Assembly: GCA_963804845.1 (NCBI GenBank)
Contig: CAWDSA010000002.1
Location: 318,533-382,532 of the forward strand
From: an uncultured Actinomycetota bacterium
GTDB lineage: Bacteria; Actinomycetota; Actinomycetes; Propionibacteriales; Nocardioidaceae
DNA length: 64,000 nt
Reading direction: 5' to 3'
This document shows positions 11,935-17,132 of the stretch, in pieces. The translations under genes were made by a program, and so were the position numbers. The notes beneath the pieces were generated by a model, which made no database searches, was not told the DNA's origin, and saw only the letters and a list, made by a program, of their open reading frames with translations. How positions within the stretch are numbered: position 1 is the first letter of the stretch; the number at the start of each line of letters is the position of its first letter.

Positions 11935-13119
11935 ATGACGCACTTTGTTCGGAAACGTGCGCCCAGCGTCTCTGAGATTGCTGACCTGGCTATCTCTCTG
12001 GCGGGAGAGCGGAACGGTGCGCCAGATGGCAGACCGAACGGCAGACCTGGCCTCAACTGGGGGGCCCGGATCGTTGACCACCCTCGTGGTACCACTCCTT
12101 CTCCGTTGCGGTGGCATCGAGGTGCCGAAGGTTGGAGTCCCCGGGAGGCCCGCCGGTGGGATCGACGTGCTCGCTATGGTTCCCGGCTACGAGTGGAGTC
12201 TCAGCGCCGATGGATTCGAGCGGTCCCTGGCCCAGTGCGGCTACGCCCACACTGCCGCAAACGCCGAGTGGGCGCCTGCCGAACGCAGCTCTCTTCGCCC
12301 TGCGCCAGAGTTCTCACGGCACCCAGCAGGTGCCAGCACTGGTCGTCGCCAAGCTCGCCTGCAAAGAAGTTGGCTGCCGGCGTCCGCACGCCAGCTCTGG
12401 AGGCGCGGGTAGCAGCACACGGCAACTTTGGGGCAAGCCGGGACGATGCTCGACGGAATGCGGTGCTCTACTACGAGGTCGCCGAGTCCCTCGGCATGCG
12501 TCCGGTCGTGTTCGTGACGGGATGCGAGTGTGCCCTGCCAGCCGTACATCGGTCGTGGCGAGGCACTAATGGCTGTAGATCTGATAGCCCACCAGAACGA
12601 AGGTGATGATTGGCTTGGTCGTCACCGCGGAAAACTTTGCTCGTCGATGGCGAAGCACATCAGTGGCACAAGTCAACGCGGGAACTTGGTCCCGAGCAGG
12701 CGTTCCGACAGGCCGACGCGGACGATGCATGGAGTGTGCTTGAGGCACATCTTCGCGCTCAGGGGACCTCGGCTGAGTCATGGGTGGCCGCCGTAGGGCG
12801 CGCATCTCGCGCCTCGCGGACAACGCTTACGGCGCCTCGCCCGGGGTTCGTCCACTACAACCTGGTGAATATCCGGCGATGTCTGACCGAGGCGAATGAT
12901 CCTGCATTGGGCGACGCCCGCAGCGATGGATCCCTCGAGCCTTTTGTCGATTCGGCTGGCTGTACGTTGCTCGTCGAAAGTGGGGTCGAGGTGCGTGCTG
13001 GCGACCCGGTGCTGGATGTGAGGATGTCGGCGGGTCCGCATCCAGAGACCAACAGTCTTTTTGAGATCCAGTCTCAACCCGTACCTCGTGACAATCAGAT
13101 CTGGGAGATCTTCGACTAG
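11935..13119 (+). pseudogene. thymidine/pyrimidine-nucleoside phosphorylase-fold protein (divergent, short N-terminus), about 3-4 frameshifts
   Basis: ADLASTGGPGSLTTLVVPLLLRCGGIEVPKVGVPGRPAGGIDVLAMVPGY (11945 frame) aligns by eye with this window's own DeoA: [61 protein letters not shown]...VPALVVAKLACKEVG (12111 frame) matches PADKKLYALRD...IPLIASSIMSKKIA. FGASRDDARRNAVLYYEVAESLGMRPVVFVT lies in the 11752 frame. The C-terminal AGCTLLVESGVEVRAGDPVLDV lies in 12610..13119. Confidence 0.6.
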
Positions 13120-15696
13120 TGCAGAACTACACATGCTTCTGGCATCCCGAACTGGGGTATGGCGAGCGCGCCATCGACGATCCGTGCGATCAGTGCGGGC
13201 GTCCGATGGACCATCCGTTGAACGAGCCGCCTGACCAGGTCGGTGAGTACCGGATCGTCGCCACATTGGACCGCGGCTACTACGCGGCGACTTACGTGGC
13301 GGAGCAGGCTGGCGTAATCACGCGTCGGGTCTGTCTCAAGATCGCCCCCGCCGAGTTGTACGAACGGCTCGCCAAGGACTTCGAGGCGGAGTGCCGCGCA
13401 CATCAGCAGGTCGCTGAAGGTACGGCTCACCTGGTCGAGATTCAGGGCGCCTTTCGGGTGCCGGTGAATTTTGGAGCGGACCCGGACGCCGTCGACTGTC
13501 AAGTGGCAGTCCTCGATTACGTGCCCGGAGTTTCGTTGCGCAGCATCCTCGAGGGAGAGACGCAAATATCTACTCCGCTCCAGTGGCGCAGATAGCGATG
13601 GATCTGCTCGAGTTACTTGGCGAGCTCGAGCAGCGCCAGATGTACCACAACGATCTACACCCTGGAAACATCATCGTCCGCGAACTCGAAGACCGGGAGC
13701 AACGCGGCGGAGACCTGATCGATGCCTTCGTCCAGACCATTGCCGTCGACATGGGGTCGGTGCCTCGATAGCAGCAAGACCGGCGACGAGTCCGACCGGC
13801 TAGCTGACACCCATCAGGTGACTCAACACCTGATGAAGCTCGCTCGTCGCCTCAGTTCGGATCCTGCGGATGCGTCCGACGCCGACTATCGGTTGAGCCG
13901 AACGCTGAACGACATCGCCACTCTGTTGAAGCCGCGACAGCCTCCGGCAGCGTGGACAGCGCTACGCCGACTTGCAGCGAATGATTCGCACGGCCTTTGA
14001 CATCGCCAACTCTCCTTGGAAAGCGCCGTCGGGAGGCCTGTCGAGCATGTCCGACTCGTACAACGCGCAGACCATGCACGCGTGGTTCATACCAAGGCTG
14101 CTTGTGGACCCAGACGGAAACTGGCAGCGCCGTGTTGAGGCTCCCGGACCACTCGTCGTCACCGGAATGCGCGGTTGCGGGAAGACGATGCTCCTCCGGC
14201 GCCCTGCAGTTCCACGCGCGCGCCATCCTCGCCCAAGAACGTGTCTCGGCAACGGAGGGCACGACTCAGGAAATCGCACAGTTGCTTCGTAACGATGGCT
14301 ATGTCGGGCTCTATGTCTCCTGTGGACGTCTACTCGACGGCCTGGGCCAACCTCAGACTGACGCCAACGAGCCTTTCACCCGGCTATTCCTCTGCTATGC
14401 GAGGGAAGCCCTCCTAGCCCTGCGTCACCTGAGCGAAGTCGCTGGACTCGACGCCGGTTCGCCGTCGCCTGGCACAATCGCCGACATCGTCAACGGCCTC
14501 GTTGACCACGCCAAGCTCCCATCTGGTGCAAGTTCCTTCGTGCTAGAGCGGGAACTCGATTCCATGCTCCAGACGTTGGAGAGAGGCCACTCCCAGTATC
14601 AACTCAACAGCAGCCCGTCGAACGCAATGCCCAGGCTCGCCGACGCAGTTCGACGATCATCGCGACTGTGGGAGGGCCAGCGAGTCCTTTTCCTTCTGGA
14701 CGACGTGTCAACCCGGAACCTCCGCGAAGACTCAATCAGAACCCTGCTGTCGCGGTTGATGTTCACGAATGAGACCTGCGCCTTCAAGGTGACAACGGAG
14801 GCTCAGACGCTGGAACTGGTCCTCAAGTCACCCGGCCTAGTCGAATCTGCCCGGATTGGTCGCGACTACGAGACCTTCGATCTCGCTGCAGACATCCACG
14901 AGCTTCTCCGCGCGGATCACGGACGAAAAGGGCGTGCCACTTCATCGCCCAAGTACTCGAGAAGCGCAGCGAGCTCACAGGCCGACACCCGACCAGAACC
15001 CCACTTGAGGTACTCGGCGACCAGTCGCTCATCGACATCGCGCGCAGCATCGTCAACTCGACGGCGTCGTCCACCGAGCGCAAGCACGTATATCGCGGCA
15101 TGAGCGCTATAGCGGCTGTGTGCGTCGGCGACATCGGAGACGTCATCTCGATCTATCAGATGATACCTCGACAACGCCGATCGCGCAGGTCGCACGACGA
15201 CGTTTCCCGTTGCCGACGAGTTCCAGTCCAAGGCGTTCCAGGAGTACTGCTCGAAAGAGATCTGGAGACTCAACCGTCGTGCCGGGCGTCTCAAGAACTT
15301 CGCCGATGGGTTCGCCCTTGCAGCACACGAACTCCTCATGCAGTCGGGCCGCGCGGCGGGGCCAGAGCGCCTCCGGCAGTACAGCAGCATCTACGTTCGA
15401 GTAACGACAGGCGACCAAGAGCGACAGCTCCAGCAACTGCGCGAGCTCGTCCACGCTGGCGTCTTCGTGCTCACAGGCGCGCCAGACGCGCCTAGGACGA
15501 AGACACGAGACGGTGACCCCCTCACCCAGTACATCCTGACCTACAGGAAGCTTCTCGGAATCTCGCGCTATATCGGTCTCGCACAGCGGGATCGGTTCGA
15601 GCTGTCGGGTAAGAGCCTCGAAGAGTGGCTCAACGGCGAAGGCGACACTAGCGAGGTCTTGAAACGAAACGTCCAGACCGAATCGCCCGAGGGTGA
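13119..15696 (+). pseudogene. Ser/Thr protein-kinase-like domain fused to a P-loop NTPase (ORC/Cdc6- or STAND-like AAA) with a C-terminal wHTH-like region; at least 6 frameshifts
   Basis: GTG 13119 overlaps the upstream stop (TAGTG). Kinase N-lobe YRIVATLDRGYYAATYVAE...RRVCLKIA lies in 13119..13595. Catalytic loop YHNDLHPGNIIV and AVDMGS lie in 13583..13771. Walker A VVTGMRGCGKTMLLR is at 14164-14187. Walker B RVLFLLDDVS is at about 14681-14710 in 13997..15103. The C-terminus YRKLLGISRYIGLAQRDRFELSGKSLEEWL lies in 15338..16078. The 3' end is uncertain. Confidence 0.6.
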
Positions 15697-16848
15697 GGAA
15701 GGTGAAGATCCTCCGACGACCAAGAGCGGGCACCACGGGGCGGGGGCGTATCGCGCACCGCCCGAAGACAGTCAAAGTCGAACCGGGACCGACACTGTTC
15801 GACGGACCTGGCGAGGCCTCGCTCACCGCTTCCAGCTCAACTGTCGTCGAACATCAGGTCCTGACTGCGATCCCTCGCGAGATCAGCGCTCAAGAACTGA
15901 GAAAAAATCGACATTACAGAGTTCATTGTCGGCCTCGGATTCGAGGACCGCGCCATCGAGTCGTTCGGTCGCGTTCTGGAGACGGTGGACCCGCCGCGAA
16001 CCTACGCTGTTCGCTACCCGGTTCCTGCTCACGCCCCGGAGATCCTTGCAAAGCTTGAAGCGGCCGGAAGCGCAGTAGAGCATATCCCAAGCACCGATCA
16101 CGACTTCGCTCAACAGCCGGACCCTGGCCTCGGCCTCGTCGACATCACAGGGCTGTCGAAACGGTTCATCTACTCATCGATCCGCAACCTGCTGCTTCGA
16201 GATGGCAAAGTGATCGTTGCTCACACGGCCTCGGAGACGAGCTCACCCGCTGCAGGACGAGGTGCGTAGAAGCGGCTCGAACTGACTAGAAACCTCGACA
16301 TCTTTGCTCGCCTCGAAGCCTTCAATGACATCCTGACAGGCGAGTCGCCGAGTTACTCATTCGTGAGGCTCGGCGAGGGGAAGTAGCCCACGACGGGCGC
16401 CGTCGCGTGCTGCTCGCAGCAAGTTCCGCGAAGTACGAGCGGCTCTTCTCGCTGCTCCAAGAGCGCGACTACGACCACGTAGAAATAGCGATCCCAATGG
16501 ACGGTTCTCCTCAGGCCGAACTCGCCGAACTCGCCGGGTTTGTCGCGGCGCAGGACTACCACGCGTGCGATCTGCGGCCGATGGACTGAGAAATCTGCAG
16601 TTGCTCGTCGGCGAAATCGAGAGGGACTACTGGCGGTATTACGGCGACCAGAACTTCAACGTCGAAGTCGGCCTGACGGGATCGAAACTGCATGCGGTGG
16701 CGATGGCAATCGCCAGCGCGGATCTGAAGTTCGCTCAAAGGTCGGGACGTCGCCCCGGCGTCATACGATCCGGAGCTCGCCATTCTCCTCAGGGTCGGGG
16801 CAGACACGCTTCTATCTGGTTGAACGGCGGCGGCAGGTGGGGGAATGA
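15693..16848 (+). pseudogene. Rossmann-like protein with weak Csa3/CARF-type motifs; frameshifts and in-frame stops
   Basis: A possible GTGA start/stop overlap at 15693-15696 is conditional on the upstream gene terminating in a third frame, which I could not establish. A frame switch occurs at the A6 run 15902-15907. My translation is KIDITEFIVGLGFEDRAIESFGRVLETVDPPRTYAVRYPVPAH...LVDITGLSKRFIYSSIRNLLLRDGKVIVAHTA, followed by an in-frame TAG at 16267-16269. It continues with ...RLFSLLQERDYDHVEIAIP... and NFNVEVGLTGSKLHAVAMAIASADLKF. Family assignment is tentative. Confidence 0.35.
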
Positions 16849-17132
16849 CGTACGTCATCGACGTCTTCCCCCGTTCGGAGTTCGCGCCGACGAGGTTGCT
16901 CCCGACCCGGCCCTCGATGCCGCATTGGAAAGGCATGCACTGAACGCTACGGCGTTGAGAGCCGATACCGACGAAGACGTCGACTGTCCGCGGGGACACC
17001 CAGCCCAAGTGGCCTCTTGGCTTGGTCGTTCGTACCTCGTCGTCCTATTGGCGGGCTTCGTCCGGTGTCAGCGAAACCCGACCGACCGCGGCCGGAGCGA
17101 GGTCGCCTGCGCGAGCGGCGGAATGGGCTCAG

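Follow-up and report, generated by a model that had tools for sequence, protein, structure and literature searches.

The locus examined here lies in a window of 64,000 nt (the whole stretch of DNA that was analysed) and was originally predicted to hold a decayed operon of unfamiliar architecture beside a restriction-modification (R-M) remnant. It raises the questions of what these genes encode, whether their family is known, and whether they are decayed at all. What the locus carries is a copy of a gene module that is conserved and horizontally mobile and that has a large multidomain protein (BIG) as its invariant core. All five module genes (Vsr, HATPase_c_3, Dcm, TP-like, and BIG) are present in the window inside a low-GC island (Table 1). 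The lower GC content that had been claimed was confirmed (0.61-0.65 over 8-17 kb vs 0.68-0.75 in the flanks), and the island looks foreign. An Iso_dh gene (5143-6243) and a sigma-factor gene (17136-18116) are intact.

Table 1. Coordinates of the module genes and of the domains of BIG in the window.
Feature	Position	Strand	Basis or remarks
Vsr (very-short-patch repair endonuclease) gene	8089..8502	+	Vsr genes of related loci (tblastn, frameshift-aware alignment)
HATPase_c_3 (MutL/GHKL-type ATPase) gene, ~690 aa	8547..10606	-	Alignment to homologues
Dcm (C5 cytosine DNA methyltransferase) gene, ~360 aa	10616..11684	-	Divergent to TP-like gene
Dcm/TP-like divergent intergenic region	11685..11882	.	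AAGGAG Shine-Dalgarno at 11872-11877 (sequence read)
TP-like gene, ~410 aa	11883..13119	+	TTG start 11883; TAG stop 13117-13119
BIG gene, ~1230 aa, CARF_STK_AAA family	13119..16848	+	GTG start 13119; TGA stop 16846-16848
BIG: Zn-ribbon (CFWHP...CDQCGRP) and Ser/Thr-kinase-like domain	13119..14000	+	Motifs, Pfam, Foldseek
BIG: ORC/Cdc6-like AAA+ ATPase	14040..15370	+	PF24389 and invariant motifs
BIG: winged-helix-like DNA-binding domain (…RTKTRDGDP…RKLLG…RDRFELSG…)	15370..15660	+	Strongly conserved block
BIG: variable acidic linker, predicted disordered	15661..15880	+	pLDDT, no conservation
BIG: two tandem CARF domains, Can1-like pseudo-dimer	15881..16848	+	AF2 and Foldseek

The original prediction placed three to four genes at 11935-16941. 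Only two were found, TP-like and BIG; the former starts further upstream, at a TTG codon preceded by AAGGAG, and the latter stops short of the claimed end. Since BIG is a single intact ORF of 1205-1290 aa in ~46 of the 56 homologous loci, the kinase, NTPase, winged-helix (wHTH), and CARF parts belong to one polypeptide. The coupling signal TAGTG at 13117-13121 was upheld as an overlap of the TP-like stop with the BIG GTG start. Two further candidate overlaps, GTGA at 15693-15696 and ATGA at 16845-16848, are present but are not gene overlaps, the one being internal to BIG in the linker and the other containing the BIG stop codon. The TAG at 16267-16269, taken for an in-frame stop, exists but sits between compensating frameshifts at 16237 and 16268. 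All of the quoted motifs (HNDLHPGN, VVTGMRGCGKT, VLFLLDDVS, RDRFELS, GFEDR, and GLTGSK) were located in plus-strand fragments, and the domain calls (TP fold, kinase, Walker A/B NTPase, wHTH, and CARF/Csa3-like Rossmann domain) all hold.

The domain order of BIG is Zn-ribbon, Ser/Thr kinase, ORC/Cdc6-type AAA+ ATPase, wHTH, linker, and two tandem CARF domains, and the window protein is 54% identical to the BIG of locus L005 over 1243 aligned columns. The kinase part contains the VCLK Lys, the ECRAH Glu, HNDLHPGN, VDMGS, and a Ser-rich activation loop (conserved across 46 homologues); it was matched by Pfam Pkinase, and the best Foldseek matches were PknB and Aurora (~280 columns). Its HNDLHxxN motif is without the Lys of HRDLKxxN and resembles that of the atypical/small-molecule kinases ABC1, APH, and Bud32, and its substrate need not be a protein. 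The AAA+ domain has an invariant Walker A (GMRGCGKT, with an Arg within the P-loop) and Walker B (FLLDDVSTR), and PF24389 matched intact homologues at 1e-23 to 1e-26 and the window fragment at 8.8e-11. A wHTH in this architecture has been described (PMC4012209), and its helix/strand pattern was seen at residues 717-815 of the AF2 model of homologue P0127. Residues 816-874 of that model, corresponding to the linker, have a pLDDT below 50, and no conservation was found in the linker among the 46 homologues. A predicted tandem CARF fold is supported by the AF2 model of the homologous 310-aa part (pLDDT 91.8, pTM 0.91) and by Foldseek, which, in agreement with the earlier CARF call, matched Can1 (6sce, 2.6e-6 over 420 columns) followed by Csa3, Can2, Cam1, Csm6, Cad1, and ring nucleases. 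The CARF motifs are GFEDR, DITGLSK (which fits [DN]x[ST]xxx[RK]), and GLTGSK. [quoted passage not shown]

The gene set had been regarded as unfamiliar. Neither PADLOC nor NCBIfam contains a named multi-gene system that matches it, but BIG itself corresponds to the PADLOC entry CARF6--CARF_STK_AAA (PDLC01925). The window fragments match this profile colinearly at E-values of 1e-10 to 7e-82, far beyond chance, and intact homologues match it end to end with 1603 and 1592 bits. Because of this match and because the CARF-kinase-ATPase-wHTH architecture was described in 2014 (PMC4012209), the BIG family is already catalogued; it is experimentally uncharacterised, no experiments on any CARF_STK_AAA member having been found in the searchable literature, and hence not an unknown family. 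At E<=1e-30, BIG has 221 representatives at the level of 50% identity; of the 150 that were listed, those matching at full length are colinear over nearly the whole query.

Judged from its sequence, TP-like is a divergent thymidine/pyrimidine-nucleoside-phosphorylase-fold protein. It is ~45% identical to a homologue from Arthrobacter sp. 260 (P0007), its best PDB match is the PyNP 1brw (2e-14), and it scores far under the cut-offs of the NCBIfam TP/PyNP models. In an active-site census (E. coli numbering), the family was found to retain D83, S86, T87, G88-89, T95, D125, R171, S186, K190, and F210, while K84, H85, S113, and T123 are replaced; the predicted pyrimidine-binding residues are thus kept and the putative phosphate/His site is remodelled. 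Classical phosphorolysis is therefore doubtful, as the catalytic His85 and the phosphate ligands K84, S113, and T123 are those replaced. The window protein has Lys in place of the otherwise invariant S186 equivalent. A canonical deoA gene is also present in the window (49630-50919).

A neighbourhood census was performed on 56 related BIG loci from many phyla. Co-occurrence in intact homologues among defence genes, which the original prediction proposed to check, was confirmed: TP-like adjoins BIG in 39 of the 56 loci (~70%), usually directly upstream, and the two genes usually overlap by 4-8 nt, which suggests translational coupling. Both of the further TP-like genes followed up in a TP-like-seeded search had BIG downstream. 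Pairwise identities of BIG correlate with those of TP-like (r=0.65) and of Dcm (r=0.37; Mantel p=0.001 for each). BIG adjoins Dcm in 36-41 of the loci (~65-70%) and has Vsr nearby in ~20, and HATPase_c_3 of the type found in the window stands beside the module in 7, a second type occurring in 4 more. Loci without TP-like have the order Dcm-BIG-Vsr, and position-equivalent alternatives to TP-like occur among them, for example a TIR_2 protein in L033. Around BIG, HATPase_c_3 and Z1 are found repeatedly along with integrases and further defence genes; the neighbours include REase_II, MzaC/Z1, GajA/B, AriA, Old, PtuA, DRT, HipA, and TraI. No recurring cOA/cyclic-nucleotide synthase (Cas10 or CD-NTase) was found in the BIG neighbourhoods examined. 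The CARF motifs are equally conserved in loci without TP-like, so that TP-like cannot be an obligatory source of the ligand.

The R-M remnant noted originally is indeed adjacent but is not a bystander; it is equally frameshifted, and because Vsr, HATPase_c_3, and Dcm recur beside BIG it belongs to the same conserved island. The window HATPase_c_3 shares ~46% identity with its homologues in L023 and L017 along the entire protein, and PF13589 matches a homologue. The window Dcm is 50% identical to that of L015, with homologues matching PF00145, and keeps motif I (LDLFAGAGGLSEGF) and the C-terminal QIGNAVPP, a frameshift interrupting the GGPPC motif. The Vsr assignment is accompanied by a PF03852 match to a homologue (L009:7176-7745). 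In some loci an ordinary type II REase, such as one of the NaeI family, accompanies Dcm; Dcm may there be part of a distinct R-M system, and co-location in islands may account for some of the Dcm-BIG link.

The window copy is not translatable as assembled. By frameshift-aware alignment to intact homologues, ~35 frameshifts were counted in ~8.5 kb of the five island genes (Vsr ~5, HATPase_c_3 7, Dcm 4, TP-like 6-7, and BIG 12-14), each of which fits an insertion or deletion of 1 nt; 0-2 stops were counted, and no large deletions were found in the alignments. Among 219 columns of >=90% conservation, BIG after repair departs from the conserved residue at 14 (3 of which stem from a C-terminal frameshift left unrepaired), compared with 10-11 in its intact nearest relatives and a family median of 7, and hence shows no excess of substitutions. 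The predicted decay stands as far as the many frameshifts go, but is not secure: damage confined to frameshifts resembles assembly error more than evolutionary decay, and indel errors in the consensus are no less likely an explanation than true decay.

It is rather probable that the island is not decayed in the organism and that the frameshifts arose as indel errors in the consensus of a metagenome/long-read assembly, in a strain-variable, probably lower-coverage island, in which case its genes would be intact and functional in vivo. Besides the 1-nt events, the few stops, and the absence of large deletions and of excess substitutions, this is consistent with the splitting of the adjacent native high-GC DASS permease gene (6206-7969) into at least 3 frames. 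The same pattern occurs in other metagenome-derived copies (L001 13+1, L051 4+2, L027 4, L024 1, and L003 1) and in none from 15 isolate-genome records, and the window lies on a 601-kb contig for which NCBI and ENA give no protein names, as is typical of a MAG. However, homopolymers are not obvious at the frameshift sites, errors would need to be regional as long intact ORFs fill most of the window, and genuine pseudogenisation is frequent in defence islands. A real, recently inactivated pseudogene cluster, acquired horizontally and decaying by indel-biased mutation, is a serious though not favoured possibility, and would fit the foreign-looking low-GC sequence, the breakage of 5/5 island genes, the Lys at the S186 equivalent of TP-like, and the common loss of costly defence islands. 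If each indel is assumed to come with 3 to 10 or more substitutions, neutral decay would nevertheless be estimated to leave several nonsense codons and ~5-30 extra changes at conserved residues, of which there are essentially none; moreover, deletion bias is lacking and the signature recurs in unrelated MAG copies.

As to function, the best explanation as a whole, mildly favoured here, is a conserved mobile module with a defence role and a CARF-gated kinase mechanism. The module probably acts against MGEs, independently of CRISPR and in connection with cytosine methylation, and the nucleotide-centred conflict logic proposed earlier for TP-like/BIG is a reasonable hypothesis. In a mechanism that is tentative in its entirety, the tandem CARF pseudo-dimer would bind a nucleotide or nucleoside-derived ligand appearing on infection, and this binding, combined with contact between the AAA+/wHTH part and DNA, would switch on the kinase, which would phosphorylate host or phage targets, possibly TP-like too, and stop the infection. 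TP-like may bind or cleave a pyrimidine (deoxy)nucleoside-type compound, either tuning the ligand pool or starving phage DNA synthesis, and Dcm methylation would mark self DNA so that the host chromosome does not trigger the switch.

It is very unlikely that defence is not involved, with TP-like a nucleoside-salvage paralogue and BIG a signalling kinase that both hitch-hike in mobile islands. Experimental evidence for defence was not found, and the deoA gene of the window shows that salvage enzymes of the TP fold are housekeeping, but the TP-like/BIG pair is tightly coupled over many phyla with a patchy distribution, lies in integrase-/ICE-associated low-GC islands full of known defence genes, and includes a CARF fold otherwise almost exclusively associated with defence (PMC4012209). 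That BIG is mainly a ligand-gated regulator, binding DNA through its wHTH and controlling Dcm/R-M and other defence genes (by transcription or activity) upon a nucleotide signal, is unlikely. The combination of wHTH and CARF, the structural match to Csa3, the association of CARF-AAA+-HTH proteins with R-M systems (PMC4012209), and the variable effector sets by BIG (HATPase_c_3/Z1/DUF4420, UvrD-PD-(D/E)XK, HEF_HK with Response_reg_2, and type II REases) would suit a regulator. Yet the conserved, apparently active kinase and the 450-aa AAA+ module exceed a repressor's needs, the neighbours are too diverse to form one regulon, and Dcm-BIG-Vsr stand alone in minimal loci. It is doubtful that TP-like is the effector, activated for example by BIG-dependent phosphorylation and cleaving pyrimidine (deoxy)nucleosides or nucleotides to starve phage replication. 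Its invariant base-binding residues are consistent with purifying selection on the pocket, and its overlap and co-evolution with BIG and the position-equivalent alternatives, such as that in L033, point the same way, whereas the replaced His85, K84, S113, and T123, and the full conservation of BIG in the ~30% of loci without TP-like, argue against it.

Detocs has a nucleotide-depleting purine-nucleoside-phosphorylase (PNP) effector, and CBASS has the Cap17 effector. As an effector, TP-like would be analogous to both; as a regulator, BIG would be likened to Csa3 (CARF-wHTH) and to RtcR-like CARF-AAA+-HTH proteins.

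The island at ~8-17 kb of the window has a GC content of 0.61-0.65, as against 0.68-0.75 in its flanks, and between 11.9 and 16.9 kb its plus strand carries a run of short ORFs bearing all of the motifs quoted in the original prediction. Ten ORF fragments were scanned against PADLOC, and eight of these (13119 to ~16740) matched the model PDLC01925 'CARF6--CARF_STK_AAA' with E values from 1e-10 to 7e-82. The matches were colinear along the 1187 positions of the model (1-149, 152-210, 211-266, 280-352, 353-587, 716-839, 914-997, and 1109-1158). Pfam placed the ORC-CDC6-like family PF24389 on the fragment with the Walker A motif, and Glycos_transf_3 matched the first fragment at a sub-threshold 20.9 bits (gathering threshold 27). 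Frameshift-aware protein-to-DNA alignment of the window was performed with proteins of Arthrobacter sp. 260 and Cellulomonas, and the resulting coordinates are listed in the table. Two genes occupy the run of ORFs: one for a divergent thymidine/pyrimidine-nucleoside-phosphorylase-like protein of ~410 aa (TP-like) and one for a kinase-AAA+-wHTH-double-CARF protein of ~1230 aa (BIG), which is 54% identical to the Arthrobacter sp. 260 protein over 1243 aligned columns. The locus is very probably a copy of the CARF_STK_AAA (CARF6) family.

Genes of the island as placed by frameshift-aware alignment (window positions)
Gene	Position	Strand	Remarks
Vsr	8089-8502	+	5 frameshifts
HATPase_c_3	8547-10606	-	7 frameshifts
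Dcm	10616-11684	-	divergent from TP-like; 4 frameshifts
TP-like	11883-13119	+	TTG start, AAGGAG 6 nt upstream, TAG stop; 6-7 frameshifts
BIG	13119-16848	+	GTG start overlaps the TAG of TP-like; TGA stop at 16846-48; 12-14 frameshifts

When a 245-aa window fragment was used as the query against a large protein database, only six fragmentary matches were returned, and their contigs (L001-L003) were themselves fragmented. The main comparison set of 56 loci was obtained by scanning one genome per species with the two most conserved ATPase peptide patterns, and it spans Actinomycetota, Bacteroidota, Planctomycetota, Acidobacteriota, Pseudomonadota, and other phyla. BIG is a single ORF of 1205-1290 aa in ~46 of the 56 loci, and in the others it is broken up by frameshifts or runs off the contig; where TP-like (~400 aa) is present, it lies directly upstream with an overlap of typically 4 or 8 nt. 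This ORF layout rules out three or four separate genes, the arrangement originally proposed, in favor of two. Of the two additional overlaps put forward as candidate coupling signals, GTGA at 15693 falls inside the disordered linker of BIG and ATGA at 16845 contains its stop codon. The in-frame TAG reported at 16267 is present, but it is flanked by two compensating frameshifts. The island borders were searched for tRNA genes, repeats, and an integrase; no tRNA and no convincing att-like direct repeat were found there.

The architecture had been described as unfamiliar, which does not hold for BIG, since the family has been catalogued since 2014 and has a model in PADLOC. Two intact homologues (L005 and L021) match positions 1-1186 of PDLC01925 at 1603 and 1592 bits, and intact homologues are labeled by NCBI only as 'protein kinase' or 'ORC-CDC6 family AAA ATPase'. 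A phmmer search of 1.84 billion representatives returned 221 relatives at E<=1e-30, and the full-length matches among the 150 listed were colinear with the query over nearly its whole extent. The accessible text of Makarova et al. 2014 (Front Genet 5:102, PMC4012209) describes a small family of proteins with a Zn-ribbon, an S/T/Y-kinase, an AAA+ domain with an Arg finger in the P-loop, CARF, and wHTH, and devotes to function a single line, according to which CARF might feed signal transduction through the kinase. Neither that text nor its supplements mention TP-like, Dcm, Vsr, or HATPase_c_3 as partners, or the double CARF. In the searchable literature, no experimental test of any member of the BIG family was found.

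Motifs conserved in at least 90% of 46-50 homologues include the Zn-ribbon Cys residues (CF..P…C..C), the kinase Lys (vlK), Glu, HNDLHxxN, and DxG, three serines of a short kinase activation loop, the Walker B motif FLLDDVSTR, a block containing …RDRFELSG…, and the CARF blocks GFE.R, D.TGL.K, and LTGsK. The Zn-ribbon and kinase motifs are present in the repaired window BIG, and the kinase domain is matched by Pfam Pkinase. The Walker A motif GMRGCGKT, with Arg in the P-loop, was found in 43 of 46 homologues and in the window, the remaining three varying at one position other than the Arg. A wHTH is predicted from the RDRFELSG block together with the secondary structure of the model, and the CARF signature DxTGLxK fits the pattern [DN]x[ST]xxx[RK].

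An AlphaFold2 model of the 1199-aa Arthrobacter BIG (pLDDT 81, pTM 0.73) contained a complete kinase fold, a disordered linker, and two C-terminal alpha/beta subdomains. Foldseek with this full-length model gave PknB and Aurora as top matches; among the fold matches listed, no solved structure matched BIG beyond its kinase domain, and a sequence search against solved structures returned only weak kinase-domain matches. Because the full-length search was swamped by kinases, the C-terminal 310 aa were modeled separately (pLDDT 91.8, pTM 0.91). The best PDB match of this model was Can1 (6sce, E 2.6e-6, 420 columns), followed by Csa3, Can2, Cam1, Csm6, Cad1, and ring nucleases, with a Foldseek probability of 1.00 for Can1, Csa3, Can2, and Cam1 and of 0.99 for Csm6. 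These matches bear out the earlier assignment of a Csa3/CARF-like Rossmann domain; on the predicted structure, the C-terminal region of BIG is a tandem CARF pseudo-dimer.

The best PDB match of TP-like was the pyrimidine nucleoside phosphorylase of B. stearothermophilus (1brw, 2e-14) over residues 45-399 (~350 residues). NCBIfam models matched with E values down to 1e-32 (TIGR02644, in L021), and their scores of 76-113 bits lie far below every one of the curated cut-offs, which range from 269 to 570. Full-length homologues had no match in Pfam or PADLOC, and the family comprises at least 327 clusters at 90% identity. For a residue census, 34 family members were aligned with E. coli DeoA, whose key positions checked out in the alignment, and with the deoA-like gene of the window. 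The latter, at 49630-50919 on the minus strand, is intact and encodes a canonical thymidine phosphorylase in which KHSTGG and every catalytic residue are present; it is ~30% identical to homologues of the island protein; the genome therefore has a housekeeping enzyme of this fold besides the island paralogue. In E. coli numbering, TP-like keeps the STGG loop, D83, T95, and D125, and of the base-binding residues R171, S186, and K190 occur in 34/34 members and F210 in 29/34; in the window copy, position 186 is occupied by K. The protein replaces K84 by V, I, or L, H85 by A, S113 by G, and T123 by G (26-34 of 34 members), gains near-invariant K111 and R119, and lacks ~30 aa of the N-terminal helical domain. 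Judged by this residue pattern, TP-like is predicted to have a pocket under selection for binding a pyrimidine-nucleoside-like ligand, with its anion site rebuilt, and not to be a standard phosphorylase.

All ORFs within ~8 kb of BIG were clustered across the 56 loci. Besides BIG (56/56), the main clusters were a C5 cytosine DNA methyltransferase (Dcm, 36-41/56), TP-like (39/56), and a very-short-patch repair endonuclease (Vsr, ~20/56), and the order in loci lacking TP-like is typically Dcm-BIG-Vsr. Recurrent extras comprised two types of the MutL/GHKL-type ATPase HATPase_c_3, Z1, DUF4420, UvrD-PD-(D/E)XK, HEF_HK with Response_reg_2, BrxL-MIT_C, and integrases. In a reverse look-up, both of two further TP-like genes ('[Pseudomonas] carboxydohydrogena', CP113162.1, and Pseudomonas sp. 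P105, CP126693.1) precede BIG, and each locus also has a Dcm and an integrase or TraI in the vicinity. Pairwise identities of BIG correlate with those of TP-like at r=0.65 and more weakly with those of Dcm at r=0.37 (Mantel p=0.001 for both). Among the 130 other neighbor proteins scanned were type II REases, MzaC, GajA/B, AriA, Old, PtuA, DRT, and HipA. The co-occurrence and defense-island setting envisaged for intact homologues are thus found, with TP-like in 39 and Dcm in 36-41 of 56 loci and defense genes nearby. No Cas10, CD-NTase, or other cOA synthase was seen among the recurrent neighbor clusters or the listed recurrent PADLOC/Pfam families of the 130 proteins, a scope within which a singleton is possible.

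The C5 methyltransferase and Vsr found in type II restriction-modification systems are both present in the window, in the region earlier described as a restriction-modification remnant beside the operon. Since the window carries the same gene set as related loci, Vsr, HATPase_c_3, and Dcm belong to the conserved island itself. No cognate REase was found in the window island, where REase models covered part of the fragments; REase_II or NaeI-family genes occur in some homologous loci and are missing from most. A complete type II system stands alongside BIG in L060, on a 512-kb plasmid of Loktanella salsilacus (NZ_CP072995.1, 439558-445929), where BIG carries the annotation 'hypothetical protein' and the genes after it encode a 164-aa product, a DNA cytosine methyltransferase, and a type II REase of the NaeI family. 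In two complete isolate genomes the order is integrase…REase-ARP, Dcm, Vsr, TP-like, BIG, Z1 (L061, CP113162.1) and integrase, TP-like, BIG, AAA_15/21 ATPase, Dcm, TraI (L062, CP126693.1); both islands are bounded by an integrase, as would fit transport on integrative or conjugative elements. HEF_HK (PF19191) and/or Response_reg_2 (PF19192) lie beside BIG in L026, L031, L032, L033, L048, and L055, four of the six also having Dcm, and in L031 (e.g. 51-4287) and L055 both genes lie immediately before BIG, in the slot taken elsewhere by TP-like or Dcm, as a possible alternative partner module. In L033 (7646-8665) the usual TP-like slot is taken by a TIR_2-domain protein, which hints that the position upstream of BIG may hold interchangeable effector-type genes.

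The operon had been called decayed. The frameshifts on which that term was based are present, ~35 of them in ~8.5 kb over five island genes, and the window copy of the CARF_STK_AAA gene has no intact ORF; the decay itself is in doubt, with an assembly artifact as a possible cause, because stops are few and substitutions are not in excess. All of the frameshifts fit 1-nt indels, and the five genes have 0-2 stops and no large deletions. Of 219 columns with a conservation of at least 90%, the repaired BIG deviates at 14, three of which stem from a C-terminal frameshift left unrepaired; intact nearest relatives deviate at 10-11 of the same columns, and the family median is 7. Neutral decay, assumed to bring at least 3-10 substitutions per indel, would be expected to leave many extra substitutions and nonsense codons. 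The frameshift zone also reaches beyond the low-GC island, as a native, high-GC DASS/Na_sulph_symp permease gene directly to its left (6206-7969, minus strand) is split over at least three frames; Iso_dh (5143-6243) and a sigma-factor gene (17136-18116) are intact.

A frameshift-only signature was likewise found in other metagenome-derived copies of the TP-like/BIG pair, with 14 events in L001 (7753-12654 of ENA ERZ25039518 contig_21399, at a contig end), 6 in L051, 4 in L027, and 1 each in L024 and L003, all without stops, whereas none of the copies from 15 isolate-genome records had a frameshift-type split. This contrast points to systematic indel errors in the TP-like/BIG island of metagenome assemblies. 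The 601-kb contig of the window has unnamed proteins in NCBI and ENA. On the substitution count, the split permease, the other metagenome copies, and the contig record, consensus indel error in a variable island is held to be somewhat likelier than real pseudogenisation of the island genes, to which an appreciable, smaller probability is given. GC3-phase segmentation of the whole window, too noisy to tell gene boundaries from frameshifts, concentrated short segments at 6.6-17.1 kb and a few other spots. Further clusters of very short coding-phase segments at 20125-20685, 25051-25752, and 45670-47295 may represent other genes with frameshifts or pseudogenisation, or else repeats or intergenic DNA, and the 3' end of a DUF222/HNH-like ORF at 19345-20283 looks cut short.

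The analysis establishes which parts make up the module, how conserved and how closely linked they are, and that they lie in mobile defense islands. A defense role of the module is considered moderately probable, and the rival is that TP-like and BIG have no such role at all. The specific mechanism outlined here is tentative and rather doubtful. BIG would be a single-chain sensor and switch, in which the double CARF would bind a nucleotide-type ligand, the ORC-type AAA+ and wHTH would engage DNA and/or drive oligomerisation, and the kinase would be the output; alternatively, BIG could be a regulator of the Csa3/RtcR kind. The conserved activation-loop serines suggest autophosphorylation. HNDLHxxN is without the Lys of classical protein kinases and resembles the motif of ABC1, APH, and Bud32-type kinases, which makes it possible that the substrate is a small molecule. 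TP-like would be expressed together with BIG as its partner and would bind or cleave a compound resembling a pyrimidine nucleoside, unless it acts as a nucleoside-depleting effector. Its role as obligatory maker of the CARF ligand was rejected, as the CARF motifs are equally conserved in loci lacking TP-like, which therefore is not the sole ligand source; the mechanism is further constrained in that no cyclase recurs near BIG. Dcm would provide self-marking, like the methyltransferases of BREX/Pgl and MADS (PMC12839542), with the constraint that in some loci it is accompanied by its own REase.

A still bolder and improbable reading makes Dcm, TP-like, and BIG, whether or not joined by Vsr and HATPase_c_3, a separate and as yet unnamed defense system that signals through CARF independently of CRISPR and in which the tandem-CARF kinase/ATPase would read a pyrimidine-nucleoside-derived signal and not a Cas10 cyclic oligoadenylate. 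Such signals would be, for example, products from degraded Dcm-methylated host DNA or modified phage nucleosides processed by TP-like. If this were true, CARF would have a new ligand class and an NP-II-fold phosphorylase-like protein would have an immune role.

Among the second-messenger receptors of prokaryotic immunity, CARF domains are understood best, and to our knowledge essentially all characterized ones act downstream of Cas10. In the BIG family, a kinase and an ORC-type ATPase are coupled to a double CARF resembling that of Can1, no recurrent cyclase is seen nearby, and the family reproducibly travels with a remodeled thymidine-phosphorylase-fold protein and a cytosine methylase. The label 'CARF6' presumably derives from the 2020 CARF census, which may cover the partners and the tandem CARF too. 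The TP-like partner, the Dcm/Vsr/HATPase_c_3 linkage, and the Can1-like double CARF were found in no text or library searched, a scope outside which lie the 2020 CARF census and Burroughs 2015; as that census is not included, the three features are not claimed as new. Literature searches on a link between thymidine or nucleoside phosphorylases and CARF, CRISPR, or defense against phages, and on 'CARF6', returned nothing relevant. The window locus is a frameshifted, possibly mis-assembled, recognizable copy of a catalogued family, and its lesson is that 'decay' needs a read check ahead of a pseudogene label. The underlying module, in intact homologues, is a good candidate for experimental study, and the ligand and kinase targets of an intact homologue would reveal whether CARF domains also signal outside CRISPR, what feeds such signaling, and how it is tied to DNA methylation.

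Among known systems, Can1 (TTHB155, 6sce), a type III CRISPR DNA nuclease activated by cA4, resembles BIG in having two CARFs per polypeptide and a pseudo-dimeric ligand site; identity is ~12%, and BIG lacks the nuclease domains, its outputs being a kinase and an AAA+ ATPase. The CARF fold is common to BIG and type III effectors, but no Cas10 or CRISPR linkage was seen among the recurrent neighbors of BIG. The NP-II family (E. coli DeoA, PyNP 1brw) shares the STGG loop, D125, R171, S186, and K190 with TP-like, whereas its KHSTGG has [VIL]-A in place of KH in TP-like, which is partnered with a defense-type gene and does not lie in a deo operon.

In PglW (BREX type 2/Pgl) and Mad6 (MADS), a kinase is fused or linked to a wHTH and an ORC/STAND NTPase within methyltransferase-centered systems (PMC12839542). 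BIG follows the same module 'grammar' around a DNA methyltransferase, with weak similarity in the kinase domain: the PglW model NF033442 scored 27 bits (cut-off 990) and the MAD6 model NF047741 29-45 bits (cut-off 460). PglX, PglZ, BrxC, and other mad genes were not recurrent near BIG, and a few mad2-, mad3-, and mad8-like matches occurred among the 130 neighbors. BREX/Pgl and MADS lack CARF domains, unlike BIG, and BREX/Pgl methylases are N6-adenine enzymes, whereas the island Dcm is a C5-cytosine enzyme. Also comparable are restriction-like, Mza-like clusters centered on Dcm-Vsr with HATPase_c_3, Z1, and DUF4420: the window and several loci carry Dcm, Vsr, and HATPase_c_3, and other homologous loci also have Z1 and DUF4420 or MzaC-like genes directly beside TP-like/BIG. 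TP-like and BIG are not listed for Mza-like clusters in PADLOC, and the pair appears as an additional or alternative module.
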